Positions 27,520-55,157 of a stretch of 64,000 nt of DNA are shown here, piece after piece (position 1 is the first letter of the stretch; each line of letters starts with the position of its first letter). Origin of the DNA: Christensenellales bacterium. Its GTDB lineage: Bacteria; Bacillota; Clostridia; Christensenellales; CAG-138. Both the position numbers and the translations under genes were made by a program. The notes beneath the pieces are model-generated. The model saw only the letters and a program-made list of their open reading frames with translations. It ran no database searches and was not told the origin of the DNA. The stretch lies in NCBI GenBank assembly GCA_040767925.1, contig JAXGNN010000001.1, forward strand, positions 1,240,285 through 1,304,284, given 5' to 3'.

Positions 27520-27667
27520 AGGCGCTCCGACAGGAAGGATTTACATCATCATACCACAGGCGACGTTTTCCGACAAATCCCGAAAACTTGACAAACCGGC
27601 GGCCCGAAAGGATAATATACCTAAACTTGGAACGATTTTAATGCATATCCATAGGAGGAGGCAATCA

Positions 27668-33054: not shown

Positions 33055-33627
33055 ATGAACATGAACAGGGCAAGGCCCGCGGCGGGGGCGCAAAAGGCGC
33101 TTGCCGTCCCGGGCGGAAACGCGGGCGCGGAAGCCATCCGCGCGGAATACGAGAACAGCCCGGAGTACAGGCTGGGCTGCGAGATCATCGATGAGCTCAC
33201 CGAGGCGCTCGGCATCGGCGCGGACGAGGTCGCCGCGATGCTCAGCGCGAAAACGCGCCCCCCGGGCTTCGACATGCTCGGGATGCAGGCGGCAAGCGCG
33301 CTCGAGGCGATGGAGAAGAACGGCCAGCTTTCGCGCGGCGTCGAGGAATACCTCTCTGACGCGAACTTCGTCAAACTCCTCAGGGAAGTGCCCGCGCAGG
33401 TGGCCGTGCGCCTTTCCGACGCGGAAGCCTCGACCAAAAAGGCGAACGAGCGCGTGGGCGCGGAGCGAAGCGCCGGCATCCAGGAGGTGCTCGAGAAACT
33501 CCGGGCGCGCCGCTCCCTCCCCGCGCAGACGCGCGCGGGCGCGACCGCTTCTGCCAAGCCGGATTTCTCCAACATGAGCACGGAGGAGTTCAACGCGTTT
33601 AAGCGCCGCTTCTTCGGCCACCGCTGA
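33055..33627 (+). CDS. Putative capsid scaffolding protein
   Basis: Helical, charged protein directly upstream of the capsid gene; C-terminal PDFSNMSTEEFNAF is typical of scaffolds; AAGGAG RBS. Confidence 0.6.
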   Translation: MNMNRARPAAGAQKALAVPGGNAGAEAIRAEYENSPEYRLGCEIIDELTEALGIGADEVAAMLSAKTRPPGFDMLGMQAASALEAMEKNGQLSRGVEEYLSDANFVKLLREVPAQVAVRLSDAEASTKKANERVGAERSAGIQEVLEKLRARRSLPAQTRAGATASAKPDFSNMSTEEFNAFKRRFFGHR

Positions 33628-33696
33628 AAACCGCGCGGGCGCCGCGGCGAGCAAGCAACGCAACAGCCAATAAGAAAAGCAAGAAAGGGAAAAAAC

Positions 33697-34902
33697 ATGA
33701 GCAACATCAACACGGTCCAAAACACCGCGTCCACGACGCATCTCGGCAAGGACTACTACGACCGCGCGATCCTCGAGGGCGCCCGGACGCGCTTCGTCCA
33801 CGCCAAATACGGCCAGAAGCGCAGCATCCCCCTCAACAACGGCAAGCGGGTGGAGTTTCGCAGGTGGAACCTGTTCGACGTCAACGAGGACATGTGCAAG
33901 CTCGAGGAGGGCGTAACGCCCGCCGGGCAGAGCCTCTCGCAGAGCAGCGTCGAGGCCGAGGTGGAGCAGTACGGCGCGTACGTCGAGCTCTCCGACCTTC
34001 TGGAAGACACGGCCTACGACCAGGTTTCCTCCGACAGCGCGGAACTTCTGGGCGAGCAGCTCGGCACGGTCGTCGAGTGGGTGACGCGCGACGCCATGTG
34101 CGGCGGCAACAACGTGCAGCGCGCGGGCGGCAAGGCTTCGCGCGCGCTCATCGCGGCGGCGGACACCCTCACGACCACGGAGGTGCGCAAAGCCGTGCGC
34201 ACGCTCAAGAAAGCCAAGGCACGCCCGTTCGCCGGCGAGGGGAACCGCAGGCCGCATTTCATCTGCATCTGCTCCCCCGACGCCACCTACGATTTGCAGA
34301 ACGACACGCTCTGGCAGGACGTTTCCAAATACTCCGGCTCGGAGCAGATCTATTCCGGCGAGATCGGCCGCATATTCGGCGTGGTGTTCGTGGAATCCAC
34401 GGAGTCGAAGGTCATCCGCCAGGCGGTGCACACGCAGGTCGCGAGCCACAGCGCGGGCAGCGCCAACGTCGTGGTGGACGAGATTACGGACGCCGCGTTC
34501 GCCTTCCTCTCCCGCGCGGGCGCGAAGGTCACCATCGGCGCGACGGAATACACGGCTTCCTCCGTCGATCAGGGGACGAAGACCATCGCGCTCTCCGCCC
34601 CCGTCGGCTCCGCCATCGCCGCGGACACCTATGTGTACAGCACAGAAGCGGGCGCCGTCAACGCGACGGACAAGACCGCCGCCGACGTGCACTTCTCCCT
34701 CGTGTTCGGCAAGGACGCCTACGGCGTCGTCGACCTCGAGGGGCGCGGCGCGATGCAGAGCATCGTCAAGCCCCGCGGCTCCGCCGGCGCGGACGACCCG
34801 CTCGATCAGCGCTCCACCGTGGGCGCGAAGGTGCCCGCCTACGCGGCCATCATACTCAACGACCTGTGGCTCGTGCGAATCGAGCACGGCGCGAGCGCGT
34901 AA
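33697..34902 (+). CDS. N4-gp56 family major capsid protein
   Basis: YYDRAIL, KYGQKRSIPLNNGKRVEFRR, LEEGVTPAG, QYGAYVELSD, GEIGRIFGVVFVES, FGKDAYG, GSAGADDPLDQRSTVGAK, WLVRIE. Confidence 0.9.
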   Translation: MSNINTVQNTASTTHLGKDYYDRAILEGARTRFVHAKYGQKRSIPLNNGKRVEFRRWNLFDVNEDMCKLEEGVTPAGQSLSQSSVEAEVEQYGAYVELSDLLEDTAYDQVSSDSAELLGEQLGTVVEWVTRDAMCGGNNVQRAGGKASRALIAAADTLTTTEVRKAVRTLKKAKARPFAGEGNRRPHFICICSPDATYDLQNDTLWQDVSKYSGSEQIYSGEIGRIFGVVFVESTESKVIRQAVHTQVASHSAGSANVVVDEITDAAFAFLSRAGAKVTIGATEYTASSVDQGTKTIALSAPVGSAIAADTYVYSTEAGAVNATDKTAADVHFSLVFGKDAYGVVDLEGRGAMQSIVKPRGSAGADDPLDQRSTVGAKVPAYAAIILNDLWLVRIEHGASA

Positions 34903-34931
34903 AATCGATTTTTCGCCACATCCCTTCGTTT

Positions 34932-34961
34932 GCGGGAGGCGGGCATTTGCCCGCCTCCCGC
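34932..34961. other. Perfect GC-rich hairpin after the capsid gene (no U tail)
   Basis: GCGGGAGGCGGGC-attt-GCCCGCCTCCCGC. Confidence 0.6.
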
Positions 34962-35034
34962 GCCCTTCGGCGCGAAGCACCCGGAACCGTCCCCGCGAAT
35001 GCAACGGAAACATAATAGAAAGGAAACGCCATAC

Positions 35035-36750
35035 ATGAAAAACCTGATTTACCACAGCGCGCCCAAGGGCGTACGGACGAGGGAGGAATTGAAGGAGCTC
35101 CAGAAGAACATCGGCGTCGCGCCCGACGGCGTGTGGAGCGCCGCCTCGGAAGCGGCCTACGAAAAGTACCTCGAGAGGTTCAGGGAGCCGATGACCGCCG
35201 CCTATCAGGTGGAAGGCTATTACGCGCCCGGCATGGTGCGCAACCAGAAGGACGTGAAGATGATGCAGGAGCTCCTCGGCAACGTGGCCGTCGACGGCGT
35301 CTGGGGCCCGGAGACCGACTCCGCCTACTGGCAGCGCATCGCGCTCGAGGAGGCGCGGGACAGCGGGAGCGTGCCGGAGGTATCCGCAACGCTCGCTTCC
35401 AGAATCTCAGCGGCGATAGCAAACACCAAGCCCGTGCCGGAAAACGGCATGCTTTTTCCGGCAAAGGCCGCAAGCGGATTGTCTGGAAGCAGATCGTCTG
35501 GATATACCGACAAGCCCCCCATGACTCAATCTTCACCTAACTCCGGGACAGGGCTTGCAGGAAGGATTGCGCAGGGAACAATGCCCAACAACGTTGATAT
35601 GGGCGCGGTTTCGGGCGCGAGCAACAACAAACCTGCAAGTGAAGAGAGCCTGCCGTTTTTCGCCACTCTTGACGCCGTCGATCAATATTACAACCCGCAA
35701 ATCGATGATCTATTAAAGAAGTATCTTTCCCTAAGAGCCGATGCGGGCCTTCGCGGCAAGCCTAAAGGTATCGGGGAGACGGACGACATCAGAGAAGCTT
35801 TACTCGACTATGAGCAGCTCATGGAACAACGTGATATGGCATATACCGGGGTTAAAAACCGCCAGAGAGAGGAGGCTCCTTATAACCCACGCCACAAGCC
35901 GCAGAAAAAGCGCAGCCGTTCTACGGGTGCGAATGAGCCAACGCTGACGGAACAGTTTCTTGAGTCCGAAACGCCGCCGCAAGATTTCATTGATTACATT
36001 TTTGAGTATGCTGATGACAACTACAGGCTTAAGAAAGACTTGATTGATGAATTCTACAACGTTTTCATTCCAACATATGCAGAAGTTTTAAAGGAGAAGA
36101 CGAATTATGTTTTGCCCGAATGGAATCCTTATCCCTATAAAAAACGAGCCATAGTCGTGGTGGACAAGAATAATGATCCTTGGGAGGTGCTAACTTTTAA
36201 TAATCCCGACTATGACGAAATTCTCGATGTGTATTTAGCTATAGAAAATGGGGAAACGCCGAAATTTACATCCTTCGAGTCAGCGACATATCGGCCGCAT
36301 TTTCACAGAACACCAGCTAAGCAATATGGCGAGTTTTCGTATAGTCCATATTTCCTAACAGCATCTGGATATTGTTTCAGTGTATACATGAATGGAGAAT
36401 ATACAAAGACTGCATATGTGGGTAATGAAATACCTTATGACGTTCAAATCGATGTAGATAAGAGAAAAATCTCAACATATCTTGAAGATATTGAAAAAAA
36501 CTATCTTTTCGAAGTGTTGCCTCAAGCGGTGCTTTCTTTTACAACAAATGCAGCGCTTGAGTATGCCGGCATGAGCGAGTATGATGTCGAGCGTTTTAAC
36601 AATGTCATGGAACTATATGAAATGTCGCAGCCTGAGCCAGCTTTTCCAGAGATACAATACAAAGCCGAGTACGAAATATACGTGTCAGTTAAAGTATACA
36701 ATAGTCGGCATCCTAACGGCAAGTGGGTGGAAGGGTTTGGCATAGAATAA
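35035..36750 (+). CDS. Putative polymorphic toxin/effector: two N-terminal PG-binding-like DGVW repeats, S/G/P linker, AT-rich unknown C-terminal domain
   Basis: Start MKNLIYH after GAAAGGA; repeats ..LQKNIGVAPDGVWS..AAY and ..MQELLGNVAVDGVWGPETDSAY; GC drops after about 35400. Confidence 0.65.
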   Translation: MKNLIYHSAPKGVRTREELKELQKNIGVAPDGVWSAASEAAYEKYLERFREPMTAAYQVEGYYAPGMVRNQKDVKMMQELLGNVAVDGVWGPETDSAYWQRIALEEARDSGSVPEVSATLASRISAAIANTKPVPENGMLFPAKAASGLSGSRSSGYTDKPPMTQSSPNSGTGLAGRIAQGTMPNNVDMGAVSGASNNKPASEESLPFFATLDAVDQYYNPQIDDLLKKYLSLRADAGLRGKPKGIGETDDIREALLDYEQLMEQRDMAYTGVKNRQREEAPYNPRHKPQKKRSRSTGANEPTLTEQFLESETPPQDFIDYIFEYADDNYRLKKDLIDEFYNVFIPTYAEVLKEKTNYVLPEWNPYPYKKRAIVVVDKNNDPWEVLTFNNPDYDEILDVYLAIENGETPKFTSFESATYRPHFHRTPAKQYGEFSYSPYFLTASGYCFSVYMNGEYTKTAYVGNEIPYDVQIDVDKRKISTYLEDIEKNYLFEVLPQAVLSFTTNAALEYAGMSEYDVERFNNVMELYEMSQPEPAFPEIQYKAEYEIYVSVKVYNSRHPNGKWVEGFGIE

Positions 36751-36752
36751 AA

Positions 36753-37346
36753 TCAATTCGGATATGTAAAAGCCCTCGTATACCCATGAGAAAGGCGCGA
36801 ATATATAACCGTGCGCACCTGAAGGCCAGTTTTATTTGTTACATCGCCAAACGACAGCCGGTTAAGATATCTATAATCCAGAAAAAAGACACTGAAGGAG
36901 TCTTCCGTCCATGTGAATGGTTCCAACTCATAGACACTATGTTCACGTTCATCCTTCGATGCATATTTGAAAAAAGCGCTGTAGAGATACTCGTTTATTG
37001 CAATTAGCCTCGTAGGCTCACTATATACGCTTACCGTTTCATCTATGCGGATTGCGTAAACTATGCCATCCCGCTCACGGCTGTAAACACGAAAGCAAAT
37101 ATCCTCATCGCCTATTACCGGCACGATACGGCACACAATGCCGTTACTGATACAAAATGAATTGTCGGTGATAGTATCATCCAGTTCAATGCCATCGGGA
37201 GAATTCCCCGCATTGAAACGCTCGATAAACTCGGAAGAATTCTTTATACCGGGCAGTACCTGGTCAAAGTATGTGGAGAGCAGCAACCACATAAGTCCCA
37301 GAATTATTGTTGCGCCAGCAATCCACCAAAAGAGCTTTTTGCGCAT
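36753..37346 (-). CDS. Membrane-anchored AT-rich protein, candidate immunity for the 35035 effector
   Basis: MRKKLFWWIAGATIILGLMWLLL N-terminal TM after GGGGGA; its stop is 2 nt from the effector stop; similarly low GC. Confidence 0.6.
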   Translation of the reverse strand: MRKKLFWWIAGATIILGLMWLLLSTYFDQVLPGIKNSSEFIERFNAGNSPDGIELDDTITDNSFCISNGIVCRIVPVIGDEDICFRVYSRERDGIVYAIRIDETVSVYSEPTRLIAINEYLYSAFFKYASKDEREHSVYELEPFTWTEDSFSVFFLDYRYLNRLSFGDVTNKTGLQVRTVIYSRLSHGYTRAFTYPN

Positions 37347-37601
37347 ATCTTCATCCCCCTGTGAGCAAAGGATATATGCGCTGCCGAAAAATGTCAACGG
37401 GAAGGATCTCGCGAACCCCTTTCCTCTGAACTGCATCTCGGAACTCGATCGCGCAATAAGCCGAAAGACAACTGAGATGCAGTTCATTTTGCTGATATCT
37501 ATTATATACATGTAGGCAAGCAGAAGGCCGATGCGCGCTTGCCCCTCCGTTGACAAATTAGTTGGGACAACAGTATACTCATGGCAACACCACGCCCAAA
37601 C

Positions 37602-37995
37602 CCCAACTCCATCAGGAAACGATCCTCCTGGCATTGATGAGGCCCATGGCGAGCGCAACAAACCGGCCGACCGTGCGCCCGGAACCACAGCCGTACTTTG
37701 GCAAAGGAAACCGCAGCCCCCGAAAAGACGCCGATCCAGGCCGATTACGAGGCGCTGAAGCGCTTTTCCTACCGGGACATCAGCGACAAGCCCTCCGTCT
37801 ACGAGGAACCCGGCACGGGAAGGACGAGGCCGCCGAAGGAAGGAGATACGTCGAAAGGCAGCGACGGCCGGTCTGATTTCTCTACCAATAAGGACGCTGT
37901 GATTGTATACGCGAGCAACCTGCTCAATCTGACGACCGCGAGAGAGAACAAAGAGGCGTGCTGTAACCTGTACTCGGTGATGGTCGATGGGAAAA
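37602..37995 (+). repeat. About 400-bp direct repeat, copy 1 (5' flank of toxin cassette)
   Basis: Near-identical to 39285-39677 (cccaactccatcaggaaacg...gggaaaag). Confidence 0.92.
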
Positions 37996-38522
37996 GATAT
38001 TACTTTACTGGTGAGGTTTTTATAGGCGAATATGGCAACGTGGTTACTCCATATTTAGCCGATTCATTATGGGAACGGTTGTATGTTTACCTAGTGGGGC
38101 TGTCCTATTTCAATCCAGTTAAATACGAAGGATTTATGCACTCACATCCATACTCTAGCAGTTCTGAAAGTTTTTCTAATCCGGACAGCGTTGTTGCATT
38201 TCTTTCGGGCGATATTTACCTTACAACACAAAGCGGTCGGATTAAAAAATTAACCGCAAAAGAGGCATGGGATAGCAAGTTCTCGAACCCGCCATCCAAA
38301 TCCTATAATGGCCTTTCCAGTATTGACACTACCTATGTGAGGAATATAAACGAAGGCTATATTCCAAATGACAATGATGTTATCGTAGCTCAAGTAAAAC
38401 AACGATACGATGAGGAACTTTCTTCTTTTCTGGAACTGCTTTTACAGGGTATGATTGAGGCTTCAGAAGATAGATATGAAAAACTTAGTGAAGAAGGTAA
38501 AAGATATGATTACAACAAATAA
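37602..38522 (+). pseudogene. Orphan toxin C-terminal cassette 1, DUF4329/JAB-like, with a +1 frameshift near 37703
   Basis: NKEACCNLY...EGFMHSHPY...FSNPD...IYLTTQSG. It reads ggcaaagg where copy 2 reads ggcaagg, which splits ORFs 37562 and 37698. No convincing RBS or start. Confidence 0.65.
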
Positions 38523-39234
38523 AGCACCAAAACACAGTAAGATCATTTTTTTATGTATCCTTCTCGCCTTGTTGTTCTCAGGTTGTATGATTGATGCCGA
38601 TGATAGGCTAACGTCAATGATGTTAATCAAGCCTCCCGATAAGATCATTTATTCCGTCGGACAGGATGATAAAATTGACGTTGGGGGCGCGGTTGTGCGA
38701 ACGCATCAGGATGTCATAAATCCTGAGGGCTTTTATCTTGAAAGAATCCTTTCTCATTTTGAGCAGAGCTATATACATACCAATACAGATTTTCAAAAAG
38801 CGGGCGTATATACGGTATTCGTCGCCCATAAGCGGTGGTTTTTCTTCTGGAAGGTTTATTTTCAATACACCATACAGGTCGTTTCTTTGGAAACCTATAG
38901 CCCTCAACCGGCAACGGAATTAGACTTTTATGCAAGAGATGCCGAATCAACCAAGTGTATAAATACCAGCGCCTATATGCTTGTTCCTCCACTCAACATC
39001 ATTTACCCTGTTGGTTATACAGGCGAAATCGACCTGTCGGGCATAGTAGTAAAACCGGCAAAAGGCTTATTCCCGAAGGAATATAACATCACAGATCTCG
39101 ACTACACGCTCGAGAGCGACGTGGACTTCAACACGCCGGGGAATTACATTGTGAAGGTGTTTTTCACGGACGACAGGGGGCGGGATTTATGGTTCTGCTT
39201 CACCGTGGCGGTCGCGGAGCCGGTGGAGAGGTAA
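38506..39234 (+). CDS. Lipoprotein with two bacterial Ig-like domains, candidate immunity protein 1
   Basis: Lipobox LLFSGC; KPPDKIIYSVG...TDFQKAGVYTVFV and PPLNIIYPVG...VDFNTPGNYIVKV repeats; overlaps the toxin stop. Confidence 0.7.
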   Translation: MITTNKAPKHSKIIFLCILLALLFSGCMIDADDRLTSMMLIKPPDKIIYSVGQDDKIDVGGAVVRTHQDVINPEGFYLERILSHFEQSYIHTNTDFQKAGVYTVFVAHKRWFFFWKVYFQYTIQVVSLETYSPQPATELDFYARDAESTKCINTSAYMLVPPLNIIYPVGYTGEIDLSGIVVKPAKGLFPKEYNITDLDYTLESDVDFNTPGNYIVKVFFTDDRGRDLWFCFTVAVAEPVER

Positions 39235-39236
39235 GC
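39082..39236 (+). repeat. About 155-bp direct repeat, copy 1 (3' flank of cassette)
   Basis: Near-identical to 40935-41089. Confidence 0.92.
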
Positions 39237-39284
39237 GTGGATGGATGTAGATACGGCAGCCTTGGGAAACCGGGGCTGCCGAAT

Positions 39285-39677
39285 CCCAACTCCATCAGGA
39301 AACGATCCTCCCGGCATTGATGCGCCCCATGGCGGGCGCATCAAACCGGCCGACCGTGCGCCCGGAGGCGCAGCCGTACTTTGGCAAGGAAACCGCAGCC
39401 CTCGAAAAGACGCCGATCCAGGCCGATTACGAGGCGCTCAAGCGCTTTTCCTACCGGGATATCAGCGACAGGCCCTCCGTCTACGAGGAACCCGGCACGG
39501 GAAGGACGAGGCCGCCGAAGGAAGGAGATACGTCGAAAGGCAGCGACGGCCGGCCTGATTTCTCTACCAATAAGGACGCTGTGATTGTATATGCCAGCAA
39601 CCTGCTCAACCTGACGACCGCGAGAGAAAACAAAGAGGCGTGCTGTAATCTGTACTCGGTGATGATCGACGGGAAAA
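39285..39677 (+). repeat. About 400-bp direct repeat, copy 2
   Basis: Matches 37602-37995. Confidence 0.92.
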
Positions 39678-40363
39678 GGCACTATTTCACTGGCGAAATC
39701 TTCGTAGGCGAGTTGGACAATGTGATCGTACCATATCTATCGGATGCTTTATGGGAATGGGAAAATACTTTTCTTAATGGACTTCTCGATTCCAAACGGA
39801 TTACCTATGAAGGGTTTATGCACTCGCATCCATATGATAATGTTTCCGATACGTACTCGGGAGGAATCGGAGATACCGCTGTTGCGATGCTTTCCGGTAA
39901 TATCTATCTCACAACACCTAAGGGGCATATCTACGACTTGGTACGGCCGGAAGAGATTATAAATGAATTGCTTAGAGCCAAGGGCGGGATTATGAGTTCT
40001 GCATTAACGCAAGCCCCGGCGAACGCCAAAGATGTCAAGGATTATCAGGACGCCCTGATCGCTTTAAAAGGATGGTTTAAGAATCCGCCGGAAGTGCCGT
40101 ATAACAACCTTCACAGCGTTGATACTACTGGTATTAGCATCTATAATCAAGTATATGATCGCAACATGCCTAAGGTTATCATAAATCTAGTCCAGCGTTA
40201 CTGGGAAAAAGAACATGGGCCCCTCGGCTTTGACTTATATGAAGCATATAAAAACCCAGGTTACCTTTTTGATGAACTCCGGCAGCAGCTCGGCCTTTTT
40301 GCAGAAGAAGCGGAACGGCAATACTACGAAAACGGAGGATCTCTAGATTATGGCAGCAAATAA
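39317..40363 (+). CDS. Orphan toxin C-terminal cassette 2, DUF4329/JAB-like
   Basis: Same conserved leader as cassette 1, then EGFMHSHPY...YSGGIGD...IYLTTPKG. The frame stays open upstream to a stop at 39248, with no clear RBS. Confidence 0.65.
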   Translation: MMRPMAGASNRPTVRPEAQPYFGKETAALEKTPIQADYEALKRFSYRDISDRPSVYEEPGTGRTRPPKEGDTSKGSDGRPDFSTNKDAVIVYASNLLNLTTARENKEACCNLYSVMIDGKRHYFTGEIFVGELDNVIVPYLSDALWEWENTFLNGLLDSKRITYEGFMHSHPYDNVSDTYSGGIGDTAVAMLSGNIYLTTPKGHIYDLVRPEEIINELLRAKGGIMSSALTQAPANAKDVKDYQDALIALKGWFKNPPEVPYNNLHSVDTTGISIYNQVYDRNMPKVIINLVQRYWEKEHGPLGFDLYEAYKNPGYLFDELRQQLGLFAEEAERQYYENGGSLDYGSK

Positions 40364-41087
40364 GCCTATAGTACGTTTCTTAGTTGTTTTAATAAGCGTT
40401 CTTCTAGCCTTGCTGCTCACAAGCTGCTCCGTACTTCCCGATTATCGTATGCAAGCCTTAATGTTGGTGAAACCTCCCGATAAACTGATTTATGTGATTA
40501 GACAGGATCAGAAACTGAACGCAAGCGGTGGGAGAATTATAGAGTACGCTGATTTTAATGGCGGTCGCCATGTGAAAATCAGCCTAGAATCATATGACTA
40601 TGATGCTTATGACGGGAAGTACTTTCACACAAACGCAAATCTCATTAGAGAGGGGACGTATATAGTCTCAATCGCCAAAAGGCATCTGTTTTTCTTCTGG
40701 AAGCGTTACTTCCAATTTACGATTCAGGTTGTTTCCCCAGGAAAATACAATGTCGATTCCTGTGTTCCCGAAGATGACTTCACATACGAGGAACTCGAGC
40801 CGACATATTGTGAAAACGCCACCGCCTACATGCTTACTCCTCCCTCAAACATTATTTATCCGGTAGGACATGAAGGTGCAATCGACCTTTCTGGTCTCGT
40901 AGTAAAGCCGGTAGAGGGAATGTTCGTGGAACCTTATAACATCACAGATCTCGACTACACGCTCGAAGGCGACGTGGACTTCAACACGCCCGGGAATTAC
41001 ATTGTGAAGGTGTTTTTCACGGACGACAGGGGGCGGGATTTATGGTTCTGCTTCACCGTGGCGGTAGCGGAGCCGGTGGAGGAGTAA
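40350..41087 (+). CDS. Lipoprotein with two bacterial Ig-like domains, candidate immunity protein 2
   Basis: Lipobox LLLTSC; paralog of 38506 with a divergent N-half and near-identical C-terminus; overlaps the toxin stop. Confidence 0.7.
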   Translation: MAANKPIVRFLVVLISVLLALLLTSCSVLPDYRMQALMLVKPPDKLIYVIRQDQKLNASGGRIIEYADFNGGRHVKISLESYDYDAYDGKYFHTNANLIREGTYIVSIAKRHLFFFWKRYFQFTIQVVSPGKYNVDSCVPEDDFTYEELEPTYCENATAYMLTPPSNIIYPVGHEGAIDLSGLVVKPVEGMFVEPYNITDLDYTLEGDVDFNTPGNYIVKVFFTDDRGRDLWFCFTVAVAEPVEE

Positions 41088-41089
41088 GT
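40935..41089 (+). repeat. About 155-bp direct repeat, copy 2
   Basis: Matches 39082-39236. Confidence 0.92.
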
Positions 41090-41143
41090 GCCTTATCCAT
41101 TCCTAAGGCAACCGCCCAAAATAGAATACGCGATCCGGTAAGG

Positions 41144-41167
41144 ACGGCTCCGCAGGGGGCCGTTTTT
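41144..41167 (+). terminator. Intrinsic terminator after the toxin/immunity array
   Basis: ACGGCTCC-gcag-GGGGCCGT followed by TTTT. Confidence 0.6.
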
Positions 41168-41243
41168 ATATGCCCGCATCCGCCGGCCCCGACACGGGCG
41201 GAAACGGCAAAAAAACGGGGAAACCCGAAACGAGGAGGATTCC

Positions 41244-41525
41244 ATGGATTATCTCAACGAGAACGAGATCGACAAGATCTCCGGGGACACGGGACGCGCG
41301 CTCGCCGCGCAGAGGAAGGTGAGCATCGTTATCGCACAATCGCCCGACGGCGCGCCGTGGGAGGGCTGCCTCAACGGCTACTTCTTCCGCATCCGGCGCG
41401 GGGTGCCCGTGGAGGTGCCGGAGGCCATCGCGGAATTGATCGGCGAGAACGCGCGCGTCACGGAGCTTGCCAAAGCCGCGATCCGCGAATACAGGGCCGG
41501 GCGCGGCAAAAAGCTCTCGGCGTAA
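41244..41525 (+). CDS. Phage-type hypothetical protein
   Basis: GAGGAGG RBS; LNGYFFRIRRGVPVEVPEAIAELI motif recalls small genes found after N4-gp56-type capsids. Confidence 0.65.
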   Translation: MDYLNENEIDKISGDTGRALAAQRKVSIVIAQSPDGAPWEGCLNGYFFRIRRGVPVEVPEAIAELIGENARVTELAKAAIREYRAGRGKKLSA

Positions 41526-41537
41526 GGAGGGATTGGA

Positions 41538-42083
41538 ATGACGCTCAACGACATCATCGTCTCCGCCCTCGCGCAGCTCGACCGCGGACACGACGCGCAG
41601 ACGCTCGACGTGTGGCGCGACAAGCTCACGCGCTTCGCCAACGACGCTTTGATCGACCTCGCATCCGCGGCGCAGCCGCGAAGAACCGAAACCGCAACGA
41701 TCGCGGGCGGGCGGCTCGACATCGGTGCGCTCGATCGGCCTTGCCTCAAGGTGCTTTTTGTCAGAAAAGACGGAAAAGCCCTCCCCTTCCGCCGCGGGGA
41801 GAACCCGGGCGAGCTCTTTGTCGAAAACGCGGCGGACGGCGAAATTAAAATCACCTACGCCTTCGCGCCGAGGGAGCTTTCCGCCGCGACCGACGTTCCG
41901 GAACTGCCCCTCCCCTGCCACGCGCTGATCGTGACCTACGTCGTGGGGCGCGAGCGCGCCTCGGGCGACGTCTCCGTGCAGCGCGGCGGCAACGTCTACT
42001 TCCAGATGTACGAGGCCGGAAAGCACATGCTTCGCCCCGGCCTCGGCAGCCCCGACGAATACAAAATCGTCAACAGGTGGTGA
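41538..42083 (+). CDS. Putative head-tail adaptor protein
   Basis: MTLNDII start, ITY..P.EL...TD.PELP..CH.LIV.Y pattern of podoviral adaptors; gene position. Confidence 0.6.
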   Translation: MTLNDIIVSALAQLDRGHDAQTLDVWRDKLTRFANDALIDLASAAQPRRTETATIAGGRLDIGALDRPCLKVLFVRKDGKALPFRRGENPGELFVENAADGEIKITYAFAPRELSAATDVPELPLPCHALIVTYVVGRERASGDVSVQRGGNVYFQMYEAGKHMLRPGLGSPDEYKIVNRW

Positions 42084-42088
42084 GGGCG

Positions 42089-43513
42089 ATGTCGGTGAAG
42101 ATTTTCAGGATCGACGAGTTCTACGGCATCGACCAGTCCCGCGACGAGAACGCGATCCCCTTCTCCATGCGCCCCGACGCCTGCAACATGGACACGGAAA
42201 ACGGCGCGCTCGCCGTCGCGAAAGGCTATGCGCGTCACATCCCCGCGCCCGTCCCCGGGGAGGGAGAAATCCACGCGCTGTGCGTCTACGCGAGAAGCGC
42301 GGGCGACATGTTCGTATGCGCCGCGGGCGAGAGCCTCTGCGCGTGGGACGGCGAAAGCTGGCGGGAGGTCTATACCTACGAAGGCGGCCTCGCCCTGCAC
42401 CGCTTCGACTTCGAGCAGGCGCAGATCGGCGGCACGGACTACCTCGTCGTCGGTTGCGGGGAGAGGCGGCTCGTCAAGTTCGACGGGACCTCGGCGACGC
42501 TTTTCGGCAGCAGCGAGGAGGCGAGCGACATCCACGCGCTGTACCTTTCGATGTACCGGGGAAGGCTCTTCGCGGCGGGCGACCCCGATAACCCCAACCG
42601 GCTCTATTGGAGCCAGCTTCCCGGCAGCGGAAGGAGCATCGAATCCTGGGGGCCGGTCGAGGCTTCCCCCAACGTGGAGGGCGGGCACGCGGAAGTGGGC
42701 AGCATCGCGAGCGATCCCATATTGGGCCTCGCCGCGCTCTCCAACCAGCTCGTCATCTTCAAGAAGCACAGCATCTACCGGCTCCTCGGCGACAGGCCCG
42801 GCAACTTCACCATCGAGGAGGTCGATTCCCGCGCCGAGCGCACGGCGAACACGGCCGTGGTCAAATGCGGGGACGCGCTCTATTTCATGACGGCGGGCGG
42901 CATGTGTTGCTTCAACGGCGTGACAGCCGAACCCATGCGGGACGCGCGGCGCATCCGGAACATCCTCGCGGCGGCGGACGTTTCCCGCTCGATGGGCGCG
43001 CTGTGCCGCGACAGGCTATATTTTTCGCTTGAGGACGCGCAGGGCGGCGCGCTCGTGGAATACGACCTCGTGCGCGGGACCTACATGCTGCGGCGCGGCT
43101 TTCACGTACGGGGCCTCGCCGCGCGGGATGGGAAACTCTACCTCGTCGACGCCGCGCGGCACGTCTGCCGCTTCAACGAGGGGGGCACCTACGACGGCGC
43201 GCCGATTTCCGCCTGGTGGCGTACGCCGGAAAGCGACCTTCGCGAGAAAAGCGCCGTCAAGGGAATGCGCGCGCTGTACCTGCGCGGCAATTCCGACGCG
43301 CGCGCGTCCGCGACGCTCGTGGACGTCAAAACGGGCAACATCACGGAAACGCACAGGCTGCTTCTGCCCGAGGGCGGGAGCGCGGTGCTCGAGGTGCCCC
43401 TGAAGAACGAGGGGCGCACGTTCAGCCTTCGCTTCTACAACGAAGCGGGCGGGCATTTTTCCATCAACTCGGGCGCCGAAATCGAATTCGAACAGAAAAG
43501 GAGGACCATCTGA
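42089..43513 (+). CDS. Putative short-tail nozzle/stabilisation protein (beta-propeller-like)
   Basis: F.GID start, C.NMD...GAL, YRGRLF.AG...NRLYWS, LVIFK..SIY motifs, as in P22 gp10/T7 gp12-like proteins. Confidence 0.6.
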   Translation: MSVKIFRIDEFYGIDQSRDENAIPFSMRPDACNMDTENGALAVAKGYARHIPAPVPGEGEIHALCVYARSAGDMFVCAAGESLCAWDGESWREVYTYEGGLALHRFDFEQAQIGGTDYLVVGCGERRLVKFDGTSATLFGSSEEASDIHALYLSMYRGRLFAAGDPDNPNRLYWSQLPGSGRSIESWGPVEASPNVEGGHAEVGSIASDPILGLAALSNQLVIFKKHSIYRLLGDRPGNFTIEEVDSRAERTANTAVVKCGDALYFMTAGGMCCFNGVTAEPMRDARRIRNILAAADVSRSMGALCRDRLYFSLEDAQGGALVEYDLVRGTYMLRRGFHVRGLAARDGKLYLVDAARHVCRFNEGGTYDGAPISAWWRTPESDLREKSAVKGMRALYLRGNSDARASATLVDVKTGNITETHRLLLPEGGSAVLEVPLKNEGRTFSLRFYNEAGGHFSINSGAEIEFEQKRRTI

Positions 43514-43707
43514 TGGCGCTTGACATGCGCGCGCTCTATTACATCGCGCTCGCCGCGCTCGCCGCGGATGCGAACGGCGGGCAGGAATACGAGAAAAACC
43601 GGGCGATCGAAAACTGCCTCAATCAGAACTTCACGATCATGGCGCAGAAGATCGCCGAGCTGGAGGCGCGCCTCAGTTCGGTTGAAAACGCGCTGGGCTC
43701 CCTGTGA
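43513..43707 (+). CDS. Small coiled-coil virion-associated protein
   Basis: TGATG coupling to the upstream gene, GGAGG RBS; LNQNF...KIAELEARL. Confidence 0.55.
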   Translation: MALDMRALYYIALAALAADANGGQEYEKNRAIENCLNQNFTIMAQKIAELEARLSSVENALGSL

Positions 43708-43722
43708 GCGAAAGGAGGAACT

Positions 43723-44619
43723 ATGGCAAGCTATTCTCTCAAAGGTTACGCGACGCCTTCGGGCGTCGACAGCCGCGAGAAGGTCAAGGACTACCAAAGG
43801 ATGCTCGGCGTCACGGCGGACGGCATCTGGGGCCCCGTCACGCAGGCGGCGTACGAGAGGTATAACGCGGGCATATACGGCATGTCCAGCCCGTTCGGCG
43901 CCGCGGGAGACGCGTTCCCGAAATATTACGAGGCCATCCGCGGGATGATCGCCGCGCCGGGCGTTTCGGTGAGCGTCCCCTCCCGCGAGGAGATCGCGCG
44001 GGATTACGCGGAGGCCCTGCGCCCCGGCGTGGACCTCGCGATCCAAACCCGGCGAAGGCGCGGCGAGGAGGCGATGGCCGAGATCGACGCGGACGCGGCC
44101 TCCCGCGGGATGGCGGCCTCCACCTACGTGAGCTCCATGAAGGAGCGCGAGGGGGACGACGTCGAGGGGGACGTGTCCATGATGGAGGCGCAGTATACGG
44201 CGACGCTCGCGGAGCGCATCGCCGCCGCGCTCGAGCATTATTCTTCGCTCGAGTTCGAGGCGGCGCGCACGAACGCGCAGATGGCGCAGAGCGCAGGCAG
44301 CGCCGCGGCGGGCATCGCCATGCAGTGGTACCAGAGCTATCTTAACGGCATGGGCGTCGCGGGCGTCGCGCCCTCGGGCACCTGGGAAGAACCGCGGCTC
44401 TCCCCCGAGGATTATCTCGAATATGTGGCGCTGCTCGGCGCCGCGGGCAGGCGGGAACTGTTCTATTCCCCGTCGGAGGAGTGGGCGAAAAGGCGGGAGG
44501 AGCTCATCGAGGCGCTCGGGCGAGAGCGCTACGAGGCGCTCAAACGCCAGTACGCATACGCGACCGGTTCGGGCGCGACGAGCGCGGGAGGTAGGCTATG
44601 GCAGAACAGCACGAAGTGA
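43723..44619 (+). CDS. Putative internal/ejection virion protein with an N-terminal PG-binding-like DGIWG repeat
   Basis: AAGGAGG RBS; YQRMLGVTADGIWGPVTQAAY; helical body with AASRGM..S motif; sits after the nozzle gene. Confidence 0.55.
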   Translation: MASYSLKGYATPSGVDSREKVKDYQRMLGVTADGIWGPVTQAAYERYNAGIYGMSSPFGAAGDAFPKYYEAIRGMIAAPGVSVSVPSREEIARDYAEALRPGVDLAIQTRRRRGEEAMAEIDADAASRGMAASTYVSSMKEREGDDVEGDVSMMEAQYTATLAERIAAALEHYSSLEFEAARTNAQMAQSAGSAAAGIAMQWYQSYLNGMGVAGVAPSGTWEEPRLSPEDYLEYVALLGAAGRRELFYSPSEEWAKRREELIEALGRERYEALKRQYAYATGSGATSAGGRLWQNSTK

Positions 44620-45725
44620 AGAAGCGCTTTGAAATCGCGCTCGACATCAGCCGCCCCATCTCCAACCGCGCGTTCACGCTCGTCGAGGGGGATACGGGGA
44701 ACGAGCTGATCATCTCCCTCGCCGACGACGGCGAGCCCGTGGACCTCGCGGGCTGCCGCGTGATGGCGCTCTTCTCCAAATCGGACGGGACGACCGTTTC
44801 GCAGGACAGCGGCACCGAACAGAACGGCATAACGCTCGGCGGGGACGCGGGCAACGTGATTTCGATCGATCTTTTCGCCTCCTCTTTCGCGCCCGGCATG
44901 GTGGAGTGCGAGATACAGATCTACTCGGGCGCGGCGCTCGCGACCCTCGTCACAAGCGCGAAGTTCAACTTCCGCTGCCGCAGGAGCATACTCAACGCGG
45001 ACACCATCGCGGCCGTGCCCGAATACCCGCTGTTGACCTCGCTGCTCGCGGACACGATAGCGCTCTCGGCCCAAACCGCCCTGGCGCTGAACGAGGCGCA
45101 GGCGGCCATCGATGCCGCCGGGACGGGCGAGGCCGCGCGGAACGCCGCGGAAGCCGCCCGCGCCGGCGCCGAAGACGCGAGAGGCGCGGCGGAAACGGCG
45201 CGCATCGGCGCGGAAACGGCGCGCGCGGGGGCGGAAATCGCACGCGCGTCGGCCGAGCTTGCGCGCGCGCAAGGCTATCTCGCGCTCGAGAACCGGCTCG
45301 ACGCAGCCATCGGCGACGCGGACGGGCTCGTGGCGGAGCTGGAAGCGGCCGTGGAGACCCTCCCCGAGATCGCGGAAATCTCCGGCATACTCATGGGGGA
45401 CGGCGCGGGCAACGTGCGCGCCGCCGCGGCGAACGCGGATTACTACGAGCCGCCGCTTCGCGCGCATGATCTCAGCGTCGCGACCGGCGCGTGGGCCGAC
45501 GACGCGACCTACGCGGCCTACCCCAAGCGCGCCGCGGTTTTTGTCGCGGGGGCCGCGGCGGACATGGTGCCGGAGGTGACGTTCGCGCTCGCGGACGCCG
45601 TGTCCGGTCTTTTGGCGCCGGTCGCCGAAACGTACGCGGGCGGCGTATATCTCTACGCCGCGGAAACCCCGGCGGCGGTCGTGACGATCAGGACCCTGAC
45701 CTTCTGGAAGGCGGTGGGCGCATGA
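44598..45725 (+). CDS. BppU-like baseplate/fibre protein with coiled-coil repeats
   Basis: EGDTGNEL.I.L.DDGEPVDL.G......FSKSDGT N-domain; AETAR heptads. Confidence 0.7.
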   Translation: MAEQHEVKKRFEIALDISRPISNRAFTLVEGDTGNELIISLADDGEPVDLAGCRVMALFSKSDGTTVSQDSGTEQNGITLGGDAGNVISIDLFASSFAPGMVECEIQIYSGAALATLVTSAKFNFRCRRSILNADTIAAVPEYPLLTSLLADTIALSAQTALALNEAQAAIDAAGTGEAARNAAEAARAGAEDARGAAETARIGAETARAGAEIARASAELARAQGYLALENRLDAAIGDADGLVAELEAAVETLPEIAEISGILMGDGAGNVRAAAANADYYEPPLRAHDLSVATGAWADDATYAAYPKRAAVFVAGAAADMVPEVTFALADAVSGLLAPVAETYAGGVYLYAAETPAAVVTIRTLTFWKAVGA

Positions 45726-46558
45726 TCGGCAGGACGAACGCGACTTCGGGCGGCTCCTCCCTGGTAAAGGGGGGAGCCGTCCTCGCCTCCCACAGCGCGG
45801 GCGCTCCCGGCATGACCGACCGCGGCGTCGTGACGCTCGGCGACGGGAAGCAGTACCGCCTGCTGGAAATCAAGCAGAGCGGGACGCTGAGCTTCAACGC
45901 CGCGCAGCTTAAAAAAGGCATCCGCGCGGATGTCTGCGTCGTAAGCGGCGGGCAGGGCGGCGGACGCGGCGGAGCGAATCACGGCGGCTACGGCGGAAGG
46001 ATGCTCAATCTGTACGGGCTGCTTCTGGACGATTTGAGCGTGGTGATCGGAGCCGGGGGCGCGGGCGCCGCTTCCAGCAATTATGGATCGCTGGGAGGTC
46101 AGTCCACGCTCAGGCGCGCTTCCGACGCGGGCGCCATGGGGCCGATCCCCGGCGTCGGCACAGGCGGCGGCCGGGGAGGCTACTCTTCATCGCAGGGCGC
46201 GTATCAATTTGGCGACGCAATCGGCAAAAAGCCTTTCGACGACGCGTCCTATTTCAGCCCGCATTGCGGCGGCGGAGGCGGCGGCGCGTACAGCCCCGGA
46301 GGCGGCGGCAACTACACGGGCGGCGCGGGCGGGACGAACGGCGGAGACGGCGCGCATCGCATCTCCGTGGGTTCCCCGCAGGGGCAGCCTGGGCCGGCGG
46401 GCGACGCAAGCGCCGGCGCGGGCGGGGCCTACAACGCCGCCGGAGCGGCCGCCTCTTACTATGGCGGCGGCGGAGGCGGCGGCGGATCGAACGGCACCAC
46501 GGACCGGAACGGCGGCAACGGCTATCAGGGCGTCGTCTGGGTCCGGATTCCGGCGTAA
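45722..46558 (+). CDS. Glycine-rich tail-fibre/receptor-binding protein
   Basis: MIGRTNA start coupled to the upstream stop; DVCVVSGGQGGG, VVIGAGGAG, GGGGGG, GYQGVVWVR Gly-rich domain. Confidence 0.7.
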   Translation: MIGRTNATSGGSSLVKGGAVLASHSAGAPGMTDRGVVTLGDGKQYRLLEIKQSGTLSFNAAQLKKGIRADVCVVSGGQGGGRGGANHGGYGGRMLNLYGLLLDDLSVVIGAGGAGAASSNYGSLGGQSTLRRASDAGAMGPIPGVGTGGGRGGYSSSQGAYQFGDAIGKKPFDDASYFSPHCGGGGGGAYSPGGGGNYTGGAGGTNGGDGAHRISVGSPQGQPGPAGDASAGAGGAYNAAGAAASYYGGGGGGGGSNGTTDRNGGNGYQGVVWVRIPA

Positions 46559-46567
46559 GGAGGGAAT

Positions 46568-46801
46568 ATGAAAGCGGCGGTTATCAAAGAAAGTGCGGTC
46601 ACGAACATCATCGTCGCAAAGGAGGAGGTGTACGCCGAGTTGGAAACGGCGCTCGGCGCGCGCCTCGTTTGCGTGGACGGGACGGAGTGCGGCATCGGCT
46701 GGACGACGGAGGACGGCGGGGCGAGCTTCACCGCCCCCGCGTCGGAGCCGGAGGCCGATTATGAACAGATCATCGACATATTGACCGGGGAGGTGGAGTA
46801 G
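46568..46801 (+). CDS. Small tail-fibre-associated phage protein
   Basis: AAGGAGG RBS; A.I....VTNIIV...GIGW.....F..P pattern. Confidence 0.6.
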   Translation: MKAAVIKESAVTNIIVAKEEVYAELETALGARLVCVDGTECGIGWTTEDGGASFTAPASEPEADYEQIIDILTGEVE

Positions 46802-47041
46802 ATGCCCATCCGCACGACCGACGCGGCGCGCGCGTGGCGCGCGGAGCAGCAGCGGGCGTTCGCGGCGCTTCGCGCGCTGCTCGCGCTGCCCGCCTGGGCG
46901 GAGCTCGATTCGGGCGCCGCGATCCCCCTCGGCATGAAGGCGCGCTTTCGCCTGAAAACCTACGAATGCGTGAGCGCGCACGCGAAGGCGCTCGCGAGGT
47001 CCCCGCTCAACGCGGAATTCTGGAAGGAGGTTGCCGAATGA
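46802..47041 (+). CDS. Small phage protein (chitin-binding-like C-terminus)
   Basis: GGAGGTGG RBS; YECVSAH......P.....W motif. Confidence 0.5.
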   Translation: MPIRTTDAARAWRAEQQRAFAALRALLALPAWAELDSGAAIPLGMKARFRLKTYECVSAHAKALARSPLNAEFWKEVAE

Positions 47042-47820
47042 GCAGAACATCGGATTTCATCGCCTGGCTCACGGCGCGGCGGGGCGCGGCCTACGTGTGG
47101 GGCGCGCAGGGGCAGGAGGCGCGTCCCGACGGGAGCGTTATCCTCGACGGGAAGCGCGTTTCCGCCTCGTGGGAAAGCTGGGTGGACGCCCGCGAGAACA
47201 GCGGCGAGAACGCGAGGCGCGCGAAGGAGTATATCAGAAAGCGGCTTGAAGCGGGGGACGGCAACGTCCCCTGCTTCGACTGCAGCGGCCTTCTCATGCG
47301 CTACCTCAAGGACGTCAAGGGCTATTTCCCCGAAGACAAAAGCGCGGCGGGGCTCCTCGCCGCGTGCAAAGAGATCGCAAGGGGCGCGCTCACGCCCGGG
47401 CATCTCCTGTTTCGCCACAACGGCAAAAAGGCGCATCACGTGGGCGTCTACCTCGGGGACGGCCTGGCGATCGAGGCGCAGGGAAGGAGCGCGGGCGTCG
47501 TGATCCGCCCGCTCGACGCGTCCGGCGCAAACTACTGGAACCGCTTCGGCGCGCTCCCCTGCCTCGCTGAAGACGGCGCAAAAGCCGCCCCGAGGCAGAC
47601 CCGCTTCGCCGTATGCGCGGGGGGAAGCGTCAACGTGCGCAAAGCTCCCGGCACGGAACACGCGGCGTTGGCGGTCGCGCACAAGGGCGATCCCATGCTC
47701 TTCCTCCCTTCGGCGGAGAAGGACTGGGGGCAGGTCGCAATTTTCCATGCGGGAGGGCTTGTCACAGGTTACATGCATGTGAAATATATTGATTGTATAG
47801 AGGGAGGCATTGAACAATGA
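47038..47820 (+). CDS. Endolysin: NlpC/P60 peptidase plus SH3b domain
   Basis: YVWGAQG, FDCSGL, HVGVYLGDG, then VNVRKAPGT...W......GYM...YI. Confidence 0.85.
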   Translation: MSRTSDFIAWLTARRGAAYVWGAQGQEARPDGSVILDGKRVSASWESWVDARENSGENARRAKEYIRKRLEAGDGNVPCFDCSGLLMRYLKDVKGYFPEDKSAAGLLAACKEIARGALTPGHLLFRHNGKKAHHVGVYLGDGLAIEAQGRSAGVVIRPLDASGANYWNRFGALPCLAEDGAKAAPRQTRFAVCAGGSVNVRKAPGTEHAALAVAHKGDPMLFLPSAEKDWGQVAIFHAGGLVTGYMHVKYIDCIEGGIEQ

Positions 47821-48293: not shown

Positions 48294-48307
48294 GCCGACA
48301 CCGCCTC

Positions 48308-48347
48308 AAAACCCGCGCCGTGATCCTTGTCCGGCGCGGGTTTTTCG
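48308..48347 (+). terminator. Terminator closing the particle operon
   Basis: AAAACCCGCGCCG...CGGCGCGGGTTTTT. Confidence 0.75.
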
Positions 48348-48387
48348 TTTATAATGATATATCCAAGGGATTACGCGCGGAGGGAAC

Positions 48388-53787: not shown

Positions 53788-53788
53788 C

Positions 53789-55135: not shown

Positions 55136-55157
55136 ATCATAAAAGGAGGATATTGAA

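Follow-up and report, generated by a model that had tools for sequence, protein, structure and literature searches.

Tandem orphan cassettes of toxin-like tips and putative immunity lipoproteins in a phage-like gene cluster of a Christensenellales bacterium

A 64,000-nucleotide stretch of the genome of a Christensenellales bacterium (GenBank assembly GCA_040767925.1, contig JAXGNN010000001.1, positions 1,240,285 to 1,304,284 of the forward strand; hereafter the window) carries, downstream of a full-length putative polymorphic toxin gene, two tandem orphan units (unit 1, 37544-39234; unit 2, 39251-41087), each of which encodes a toxin-like C-terminal tip followed by a lipoprotein. The ends of the two units are nearly identical and their cores strongly diverged, and the question raised by this locus is whether such units are silent tips that can be recombined onto the expressed N-terminus, as an initial annotation had proposed, or something else. 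Our analysis indicated that this is probably a polymorphic toxin locus in which the cassettes are earlier tips that were displaced from the toxin gene and have been kept mainly for their immunity lipoproteins. Coordinates are positions within the window, on the + strand unless stated. The features of the two units are as follows.

37544-37705, + strand: linker remnant of unit 1, recognized by translation and by tblastn to linker residues 173-249 of the related protein P0006
37550-37579, + strand: sigma-70-like site (TTGACA, 18 nt, TATACT; 11 of 12 consensus positions) inside the unit 1 linker remnant
37596-37990, + strand: conserved 5' block of unit 1 (repeat search, blastn, 60-nt windows, Nei-Gojobori)
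37698-38522, + strand: orphan tip 1, Tox-JAB-2/DUF4329-like, an open frame with an intact catalytic motif and without a ribosome-binding site (RBS)
38506-39234, + strand: lipoprotein 1, with two Ig-like domains and a signal peptide with a lipobox-like Cys; the first 17 nt of the gene overlap the end of tip 1
39078-39235, + strand: conserved 3' block of unit 1, the end of the C-terminal Ig domain of the lipoprotein
39251-40363, + strand: orphan unit 2 frame, linker remnant and Tox-JAB-2-like tip, 370 open codons without an RBS
39279-39672, + strand: conserved 5' block of unit 2 (repeat search, blastn, 60-nt windows)
40119-40147, + strand: sigma-70-like site (11 of 12 consensus positions), ~200 nt upstream of lipoprotein 2
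40350-41087, + strand: lipoprotein 2, with lipobox LTSC, two Ig-like domains and GGAGGA before its ATG; its start overlaps tip 2 by 14 nt
40931-41088, + strand: conserved 3' block of unit 2

A blastn comparison of unit 1 with unit 2 aligned 37596-38152 with 39279-39834 (86.6% over 558 bp) and 38966-39235 with 40819-41088 (84.9% over 271 bp), and a repeat search of the window recovered the same blocks (repeat families D1-D3). In 60-nt windows the identity between the units was 88-100% from 37600 to ~37960, fell to 50-68% from ~37990, was 0-55% across most of the core, and was 90-98% from 39078 to the lipoprotein stop codon. Both comparisons placed the blocks within a few bases of where the initial annotation had put them (5' blocks at 37602-37995 and 39285-39677; 3' blocks at 39082-39236 and 40935-41089), and its claim that they enclose a strongly diverged core was borne out by sliding-window identity and by estimates of synonymous and nonsynonymous divergence (dS and dN). 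The core covers the tip's C-terminal portion together with the first Ig domain, the N-terminal one, of the lipoprotein; as proteins, tips 1 and 2 are 58% identical and lipoproteins 1 and 2 are 54% identical. No further copy of either was found elsewhere in the genome by a genome search.

Nei-Gojobori estimates gave a dS of 0.13 and a dN of 0.023 for positions 37701-37985 of the 5' block, a dS of 2.6 for the 55 codons after the block, and saturation in the remainder of the tip. The last 52 codons of the lipoproteins had a dS of 0.15, the rest of these genes being saturated or above 1.2. The cores exceed the ends ~twentyfold in synonymous divergence; the ends are thus young sequence around old cores, and protein constraint alone does not explain the pattern. 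The block/core mosaic is far beyond chance. Within this genome the two copies of the 3' block are 90-98% identical, whereas the region that contains it reaches 69-79% identity with the lipoprotein genes of other species.

The initial annotation had described neither toxin as having a clear RBS or start, and no Shine-Dalgarno motif was indeed found at any candidate tip start: no GGAGG-like motif precedes TTG 37698 or ATG 37637/37646 of tip 1, or TTG 39317 or ATG 39320/39329 of unit 2. An RBS is present at most neighboring phage-like genes, at lipoprotein 2 and at a minus-strand gene described below, and is weak at lipoprotein 1. In addition, the linker remnant of unit 1 is interrupted by an in-frame TAG (37559-37561), and a surplus A in the run at 37703-37705 shifts its frame relative to unit 2. 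The cassettes, located downstream of a full-length gene with a constant N-terminus and a variable tip, keep a fragment upstream of the tip and have neither a delivery part nor a translation start. The two sigma-70-like sites are consensus matches only, in a region that is not enriched for them (13 sites versus 8.8 +/- 2.8 expected); judged by its sequence, the site at 37550-37579 could drive unit 1 and its lipoprotein gene.

Motif and fold comparisons suggested that the tip is a Tox-JAB-2-like domain with a JAMM-like metal-dependent hydrolase fold, although it did not reach the Pfam threshold: the match of tip 1 to DUF4329 (PF14220) scored 13.2 bits, and tip 2 had no match. Among 1.84 billion representative proteins, 22 relatives of the tip were found at E <= 0.001. 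Of 20 relatives scanned (18 of the 22, and P0003 and P0005), three had a weak DUF4329 match, with a best score of 23 bits, and one had a weak Prok-JAB match; in P0027 the tip domain lies behind an RHS core motif. In 26 tip sequences, E33, H95, H97 and S107 were invariant and D112 was conserved in at least 90%. These residues fit the pattern E, H[ST]H, S, D published for Tox-JAB-2, a family equated with DUF4329 (PMC3482391). An AlphaFold model of the tip (predicted local distance difference test, pLDDT, 79; predicted template modeling score, pTM, 0.71) was compared with known structures by Foldseek, in which all top entries were JAMM/MPN proteins (E >= 1.3e-3, probability up to 0.98, ~143 columns), and by a Foldseek-independent search (VIA), in which each of the top 14 entries was a JAMM/MPN/RadC protein or, in one case, a structural-genomics protein ranking among them (Z 8.8-6.9, 93-139 aligned residues). 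NCBIfam returned no family for eight proteins, and PHROGs returned no match for the toxin, the tips or the lipoproteins.

The lipoproteins are presumed to be immunity proteins that would act at the outer face of the membrane; the signal peptides of both end in a lipobox-like Cys. Weak matches to InlK_D3 were found in six of seven members of the lipoprotein family and to Bact_surface_Ig-like in four of seven; in this family the N-terminal domain is variable and the C-terminal domain conserved. The co-divergence of toxin and immunity protein proposed by the initial annotation was supported in that tip identity and the identity of the adjoining lipoprotein N-terminal domain ranked identically in all six comparisons, at four distinct loci. 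Since linked genes share a history, this agreement fits co-divergence and does not prove binding; linkage alone could produce it. Among 200 genomes of the taxonomic family, the lipoprotein family was found in eight, five of this genus and three, with weak matches, of genus g41. One genome of the genus (G167) has three lipoprotein genes for one tip, and another (G173) has, at the corresponding position, a lipoprotein homologue and an ABC-F gene with no N-terminus or tip.

Full-length JAB-tipped relatives were mapped onto the window by tblastn. The features concerned are listed here.

35035-36750, + strand: full-length polymorphic toxin gene (571 aa) with two peptidoglycan-binding-like repeats, a linker and a low-GC tip
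36753-37346, - strand: gene for a membrane-anchored 197-aa protein, convergent with the toxin gene, with GGGGGA before its ATG
35518-37543, no strand assigned: segment of ~2 kb without a counterpart in JAB-tipped relatives (tblastn, low GC), comprising a new linker, a new tip and the minus-strand gene

The repeats of the toxin gene occupy 35035-~35517, beyond which lie its own linker and tip, and the GC content declines from 0.62 to 0.39 along the gene. The N-terminus of the 571-aa protein is 57-63% identical to its relatives; its matches to PG_binding_1 and PG_binding_3 are below the Pfam threshold (17.7 and 15.7 bits), and no known muramidase, amidase or peptidase family was recognized. With tblastn, residues 10-173 of P0006 matched 35017-35517 and residues 173-249 matched 37544-37774; residues 212-497 matched the tip frame of unit 1 after the frame change, and residues 193-494 matched unit 2. 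P0003 (residues 22-172, then 167-210) and P0008 (residues 1-108, then 113-165) abut likewise. For all three proteins, homology breaks off at 35448-35517 and is taken up again at 37544-37574, at the same residue or an adjoining one, and this gap in low-GC DNA suggests that a ~2-kb module with a new tip displaced the old one. Read in this way, 35518-37543 would be the module that displaced unit 1, and unit 1 would earlier have displaced unit 2: the linker remnants start at P0006 residue ~173 in unit 1 and ~193 in unit 2, that is, the remnant of unit 2 begins ~16-20 codons later. The 197-aa membrane protein, which has a promoter-like site of its own at 37397-37369 and no Pfam, PHROG or NCBIfam match, would be a candidate immunity protein for the new tip.

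The tip of the 571-aa protein had only two homologues, P0029 and P0030, among 5.8 billion proteins. Its model, built from three sequences, had a pLDDT of 42.9 and was too poor for a structure search, and the ESM Atlas gave low scores only (0.75-0.76, unnamed clusters).

The initial annotation had regarded the absence of any relative that fuses the N-terminus to a DUF4329-like tip as fatal to its proposal, and such fusions do exist. A search with unit 2 of the 5.8 billion proteins gave nine matches, two of them the window's own; P0002 is a 309-aa orphan-like protein and the six others are proteins of 466-532 aa. In an alignment, these six have an N-terminus of the same kind as the window's 571-aa protein, with two peptidoglycan-binding-like repeats, and behind it a variable linker and a cassette-type tip. 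Fused genes were also found in L042 (genome G167), L043 (G132) and the metagenome contig L105, which represent other species of the genus and the same chromosomal position, with the gene order OAD-beta, scaffold, capsid, N-terminus plus tip, and one or more lipoproteins. The L042 toxin gene carries a TGG-to-TAG change relative to the intact P0008. The full N-terminus was present in only two of the 15 other genomes of the genus that were searched.

Polymorphism behind a constant front was evident in three natural allele pairs, which are identical in front and then diverge abruptly to 10-80%: P0003 and P0007 are 97-100% identical up to residue ~255, P0005 and P0006 are 100% identical up to residue ~140, and P0029 and P0030 are 100% identical up to residue ~400, beyond which P0030 has an unrelated 190-aa end. 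The last pair also indicates that the window's own low-GC tip is itself polymorphic. In P0002, from another sample, the 5' block of the cassettes (97%) precedes a core of yet another type, one that is similar to P0007's expressed tip (73-97%).

A full-length gene that joins the N-terminus with the DGVW motif to this particular 5' block, which the initial annotation had recommended looking for, was not recovered. A query with the 5' block found only three orphan-like proteins with more than 90% identity, and the nearest full-length proteins were 43-45% identical (five matches in all, none of them a full-length protein with the block); the displaced ancestor is consequently one that we infer rather than see. 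The weak linker echo that had been noted between the cassettes and the full-length gene was not significant by itself (BLASTP E 0.28, 8 of 22 residues identical) and had no DNA counterpart by blastn or exact-match search; what stood of this observation is that the two linker stretches fall in the same linker columns of the family alignment.

Outside the genus, the N-terminal profile matched only proteins (in G118, G158, G049, G153 and G133) that were rejected as generic multi-repeat peptidoglycan-binding proteins with no capsid, tip or lipoprotein nearby. Among viral contigs, 38 loci had 26-53% identity to the N-terminal repeats, most of them on ~17-kb contigs; in about 30 small IMG/VR contigs of that length (L005-L034) the repeat protein is encoded near one contig end and its repeats are 29-36% identical. 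Two similar matches came from metagenome-assembled genomes labeled Saccharibacteria and Nigerium. A search of the viral contigs with the tip alignment found no relative of the tip.

Metagenome contigs were searched for structural variants, and two forms in which tip 2 is deleted were found. The window stretch was present in anaerobic-digester, wastewater and sludge metagenomes (20 runs from seven studies), of which four runs hold at least half of the sampled words; the variant evidence comes from contigs of four runs. One contig joins 39281 to 40348 via 21 other letters that include GAGGAGG, so that tip 2 is lost while lipoprotein 2 remains, preceded by the new GAGGAGG. A second contig departs from the window at 39334 and continues into an RBS and ATGGCA, which represents a comparable deletion between different borders. 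Among the joints listed, none connects the N-terminus to a cassette. Two further observations were not used as evidence: small contigs of an RNA run (X20) fall on 35032-35183, 36990-37126, 39082-39126 and 40672-40979 and not on the tips, although contigs of this type demonstrate neither transcription nor its absence, and runs X5 and X7 do not cover the unit 1 core at 37836-38955, for which strain difference or filtering is possible.

Taken together, these results fit the following scheme. The putative toxin would consist of a constant peptidoglycan-binding-like N-terminus, a variable linker and a replaceable C-terminal tip. A new tip with its immunity module may recombine into the N-terminus or the linker and push the old tip downstream, where the displaced tip would decay and the immunity gene would be kept. 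As they stand, the tips would be untranslated, lacking an RBS and, in unit 1, being further interrupted by the stop and the frameshift; the lipoproteins appear translatable, with a clear RBS for lipoprotein 2, a weak one for lipoprotein 1 and a promoter-like site upstream of each, and they are probably what selection keeps, as a shield against neighbors that still fire such tips. The near-identical ends would mark joints of integration, gene conversion, unequal crossing-over and deletion. The toxin may be made with the late genes of the phage-like element and be released at holin-lysin lysis or be borne by a particle; it would then bind the cell wall of a neighbor via its N-terminal repeats, the tip would do harm, and a matching surface lipoprotein would protect. 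A surface-exposed immunity protein suggests that the JAB-type toxin may act at the cell envelope.

The element to which this scheme refers surrounds the locus. The borders of the variable locus within it are the following.

33697-34902, + strand: major capsid gene, left border of the variable locus (phrog_1357, E 1e-62; Pfam Phage_capsid_3)
41244-42083, + strand: 93-aa gene and SU10-type head-tail adaptor, right border

The 6.2 kb that separate these two borders have a GC content of 0.38-0.62, compared with 0.62-0.74 around them, and from ~41152 onward the sequence is again homologous to relatives that lack the insert. The gene at 33055, a possible scaffold gene, was assigned by position only and had no family match. 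To the right of the locus, the 93-aa gene and the SU10-type adaptor are followed by genes for a 478-aa virion protein, a 298-aa protein with a PG_binding_1 repeat, a BppU-like fiber protein, a glycine-rich protein, an NlpC/P60+SH3 lysin, a holin and a DnaC-like ATPase. The TerL and portal genes lie ~4.5 kb beyond that cluster, behind host-like genes that encode an RraB/DUF695 protein and an AlaRS-like protein; the phage-type genes thus form two clusters, 33055-49314 and 53257-56747. No tRNA was found within 30000-58000, and therefore no att-type landmark.

Of 16 genomes of the genus, one per species, 13 contain the capsid gene and 14 the portal gene; in at least six, the cluster adjoins OAD-beta. 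The capsid-portal distance is ~20 kb, with host-like genes between, in G000 and G167, and in G109 the portal lies 28 kb away on the other side. In six other genomes of the genus, the gap between the capsid gene and the 93-aa gene holds none of the genes of the toxin locus (G196, G109 and G121), the lipoprotein only (G173), or a full-length gene (G167 and G132). In genus g41 a toxin gene directly follows TerL-portal in G041, G134 and G077, where portal and TerL are 65-80% identical to those of the window. No MuF domain was detected in the window protein or in 20 relatives. The occurrence of the toxin family, without a MuF domain, at head genes of the same element at two sites, between capsid and adaptor here and after the portal in g41, ties it to a phage head-morphogenesis module. 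The genus-wide cluster, split over two loci, looks like a domesticated, possibly gene transfer agent (GTA)-like element and not an ordinary prophage.

Several further observations concern this neighborhood. The g41 toxins (L112, 4621-12454, in G041; L113 in G134; L114 in G077) have one peptidoglycan-binding repeat, a long helical linker and a JAB tip; downstream of their genes, small Ig-like membrane proteins with a single domain are encoded, as are truncated tips. The 298-aa protein (43723-44619) starts with the PG_binding_1 repeat (24.4 bits), which is 45-50% identical to the toxin repeats over 44 aa; the toxin N-terminus may derive from that structural gene. The N-terminal profile had matches in 54 of the 200 family genomes, and many of these matches were ~300-aa proteins that have a repeat of this type. 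In L042 (13161-14783; G167) and L099 (9202-10833; G173), the lipoprotein array and the 93-aa gene are separated by an ABC-F ATPase gene, which is absent from the window. Upstream genes for a CotH-kinase/lamin-tail-domain protein (25090-27519, - strand) and an SPFH-domain zinc-ribbon protein (27251-28864) are unrelated to the toxin locus.

If the cassettes were a working reservoir, homologous recombination would join a silent tip, along with its immunity gene, to the N-terminus that is expressed and would thereby change the toxin type. Such a design does exist in the family: in G041 the linker of the full-length gene (L112, 7044-7517) and the beginning of the downstream orphan (9538-9993) have 88% identity over 475 bp, and in G110 two tip genes have a common block of 265 bp at 95%. 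The allele pairs with identical fronts and different tips, the intact tip frames of the cassettes, and the selection for orphan-tip expression reported for Rhs in Salmonella (PMC3967940) are also in keeping with it. In the window, however, no homology block is common to the cassettes and the resident full-length gene, their longest exact match is 11 nt, and no blastn match was found between the linker of the expressed gene and the cassettes, so that homologous recombination onto the present N-terminus is not favored. Between the cassettes, exact matches reach 82 nt (5' block) and 74 nt (3' block), which would make the conserved ends good substrates for exchange between cassettes or with incoming JAB-type alleles. 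Together with the stop and frameshift of the unit 1 remnant and the contigs of four runs, in which only tip-2 deletions were seen, this makes a reservoir distinctly unlikely in the window genome. Thus, the part of the initial proposal that described orphan tip and immunity-type cassettes without translation signals, with fused relatives, was retained, and the part by which these tips can be recombined onto the expressed N-terminus was not, considering the 11-nt homology, the decay of unit 1 and the finding that none of the five matches to the 5' block is a full-length protein that carries it. Plain tandem duplication and divergence, with the ends kept by protein constraint alone, would account for units that are collinear paralogues and for a C-terminal Ig domain that is conserved across the lipoprotein family, but it is extremely improbable in view of the twentyfold difference in dS, of a 3' block that is closer within the genome than its region is to the lipoprotein genes of other species, and of a 5' block that includes untranslatable linker remnant.

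It would also be conceivable that each cassette is a toxin-immunity pair expressed on its own, with transcription beginning at the promoter-like site at 37550 and translation at weak or non-canonical starts, and that such pairs function within the cell in a toxin-antitoxin-like manner or are released by lysis. The match of that site at 11 of 12 positions, the open frames with intact catalytic residues and the calling of P0002 as a stand-alone protein by a gene caller in another sample agree with this explanation, and orphan Rhs elements were reported as type II toxin-antitoxin modules (PMC7043789). We consider it very unlikely, given that no tip start has the RBS that most neighboring genes possess, that an intracellular toxin poorly fits an exported lipoprotein partner, and that the metagenome variants drop the tip and keep the lipoprotein. 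Somewhat less improbable, and still unlikely, is that the family comprises virion-associated cell-wall hydrolases and that the lipoproteins are superinfection-exclusion factors against the lysin of related particles, in a phage-phage arms race in which the cassettes would still be displaced modules. The position of the gene in head clusters (after the capsid here, after the portal in g41), the resemblance of its repeats to those of the 298-aa protein of the same cluster and the location of the lipoprotein partner at the cell surface can be read in this manner, and JAMM enzymes cleave isopeptide bonds. On the other hand, the cluster has a separate NlpC/P60+SH3 lysin and holin; three of the six gaps are without such a gene and the full N-terminus occurs in two of 15 genomes, and it is therefore not an essential virion part; and the same tip stands behind an RHS core in P0027, which marks it as a toxin module. 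Toxin JAB domains were moreover predicted to be possible nucleases (PMC3482391). A related proposal, which is doubtful to a similar degree as a reservoir, is that the head-tail cluster, with its two loci, its presence in 13-14 of 16 species and homologous TerL-portal genes in a second genus, is a domesticated GTA-like particle, to which the peptidoglycan-binding N-terminus loads or attaches a replaceable tip, and which serves as a toxin-delivery or kin-discrimination device with the Ig-like lipoproteins as a shield. If true, it would be a phage-derived polymorphic toxin route distinct from MuF, the type VI secretion system, and Photorhabdus virulence cassettes and extracellular contractile injection systems (PVC/eCIS).

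That the cassettes are displaced tips kept mainly for their lipoproteins is the explanation that we prefer, and several observations weigh against it. The tip frames are open for 274 and 370 codons with intact catalytic residues, so that expression or selection is possible, and a near-consensus promoter-like site lies directly before unit 1 (37550). No full-length protein with the window's exact 5' block was found among the five matches. The tip scored 13.2 bits against a Pfam gathering threshold of 28.6 bits for DUF4329, and its structural matches are moderate (Z <= 8.8). The grounds for an immunity role are position, reading-frame overlap and co-divergence, and the tandem order of the units is known from one assembly, that of the window; the short-read metagenome contigs listed break at the repeats.

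In conclusion, the locus resembles known systems in part. Orphan modules of other polymorphic toxins are promoterless or start-less fragments that lie behind a full-length gene. Such C-terminal/immunity modules were described downstream of rhs and cdiA genes (PMC3150448, PMC3967940). As in those arrays, start-less C-terminal fragments behind a full-length polymorphic toxin gene keep a conserved upstream piece and are followed by an immunity gene, with abrupt junctions between conserved and variable sequence. In place of an Rhs or CdiA protein, the carrier here is a small one with two peptidoglycan-binding-like repeats, whose gene lies among the phage head genes of a bacterium of Gram-positive type; the homology block is gone from the resident full-length gene, and a second conserved block is located at the 3' end of the immunity gene. 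MuF genes usually directly follow the portal gene, and the toxin genes of g41 do so as well. The polymorphic MuF toxins of temperate phages (PMC5576092, PMC3482391) likewise have a variable tip with an immunity gene and are carried by a head-module gene, whereas the N-terminus here consists of PG_binding-like repeats with no MuF domain found, and the host element is split over two loci and genus-wide, not an ordinary prophage. The main text of PMC5576092 does not contain the words orphan, peptidoglycan, JAB or DUF4329. A limited text search found no phage-borne form with a peptidoglycan-binding N-terminus in the literature naming Tox-JAB or DUF4329, and no relevant title among the listed literature that pairs a polymorphic toxin with a gene transfer agent.

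The tip shares with Tox-JAB-2/DUF4329 the signature residues, the JAB-like fold and the occurrence behind an RHS core, and Caudovirales are among the carriers of Tox-JAB-2 (PMC3482391). It differs in being below the Pfam threshold and in having a helical C-terminal extension of at least 100 aa, and its partner is an Ig-like lipoprotein, whereas Imm-NTF2-2 is listed for Tox-JAB-2 and a lipoprotein partner, Imm65, only for Tox-JAB-1 (PMC3482391). Tandem immunity arrays of type VII secretion systems, which evolve by homologous recombination between paralogues (PMC9484751), are similar in their strings of non-identical immunity genes in Firmicutes, in conserved stretches that permit recombination and in immunity-only genotypes; they differ in toxin family, immunity fold and secretion route, and toxin remnants are interleaved here. 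JAB-type tips are poorly studied, and their putative immunity proteins at this locus are surface lipoproteins. If the explanation preferred here is confirmed, the intact, displaced, tip-deleted and immunity-only loci would provide a natural series for studying tip replacement, and the family would be a second phage-linked polymorphic toxin family beside MuF. Orphan toxin cassettes are familiar from the Rhs and CdiA systems of Gram-negative bacteria; the carrier here is a different one, with peptidoglycan-binding repeats, and is encoded in a phage-like cluster that is conserved within a genus of anaerobic-digester Clostridia.

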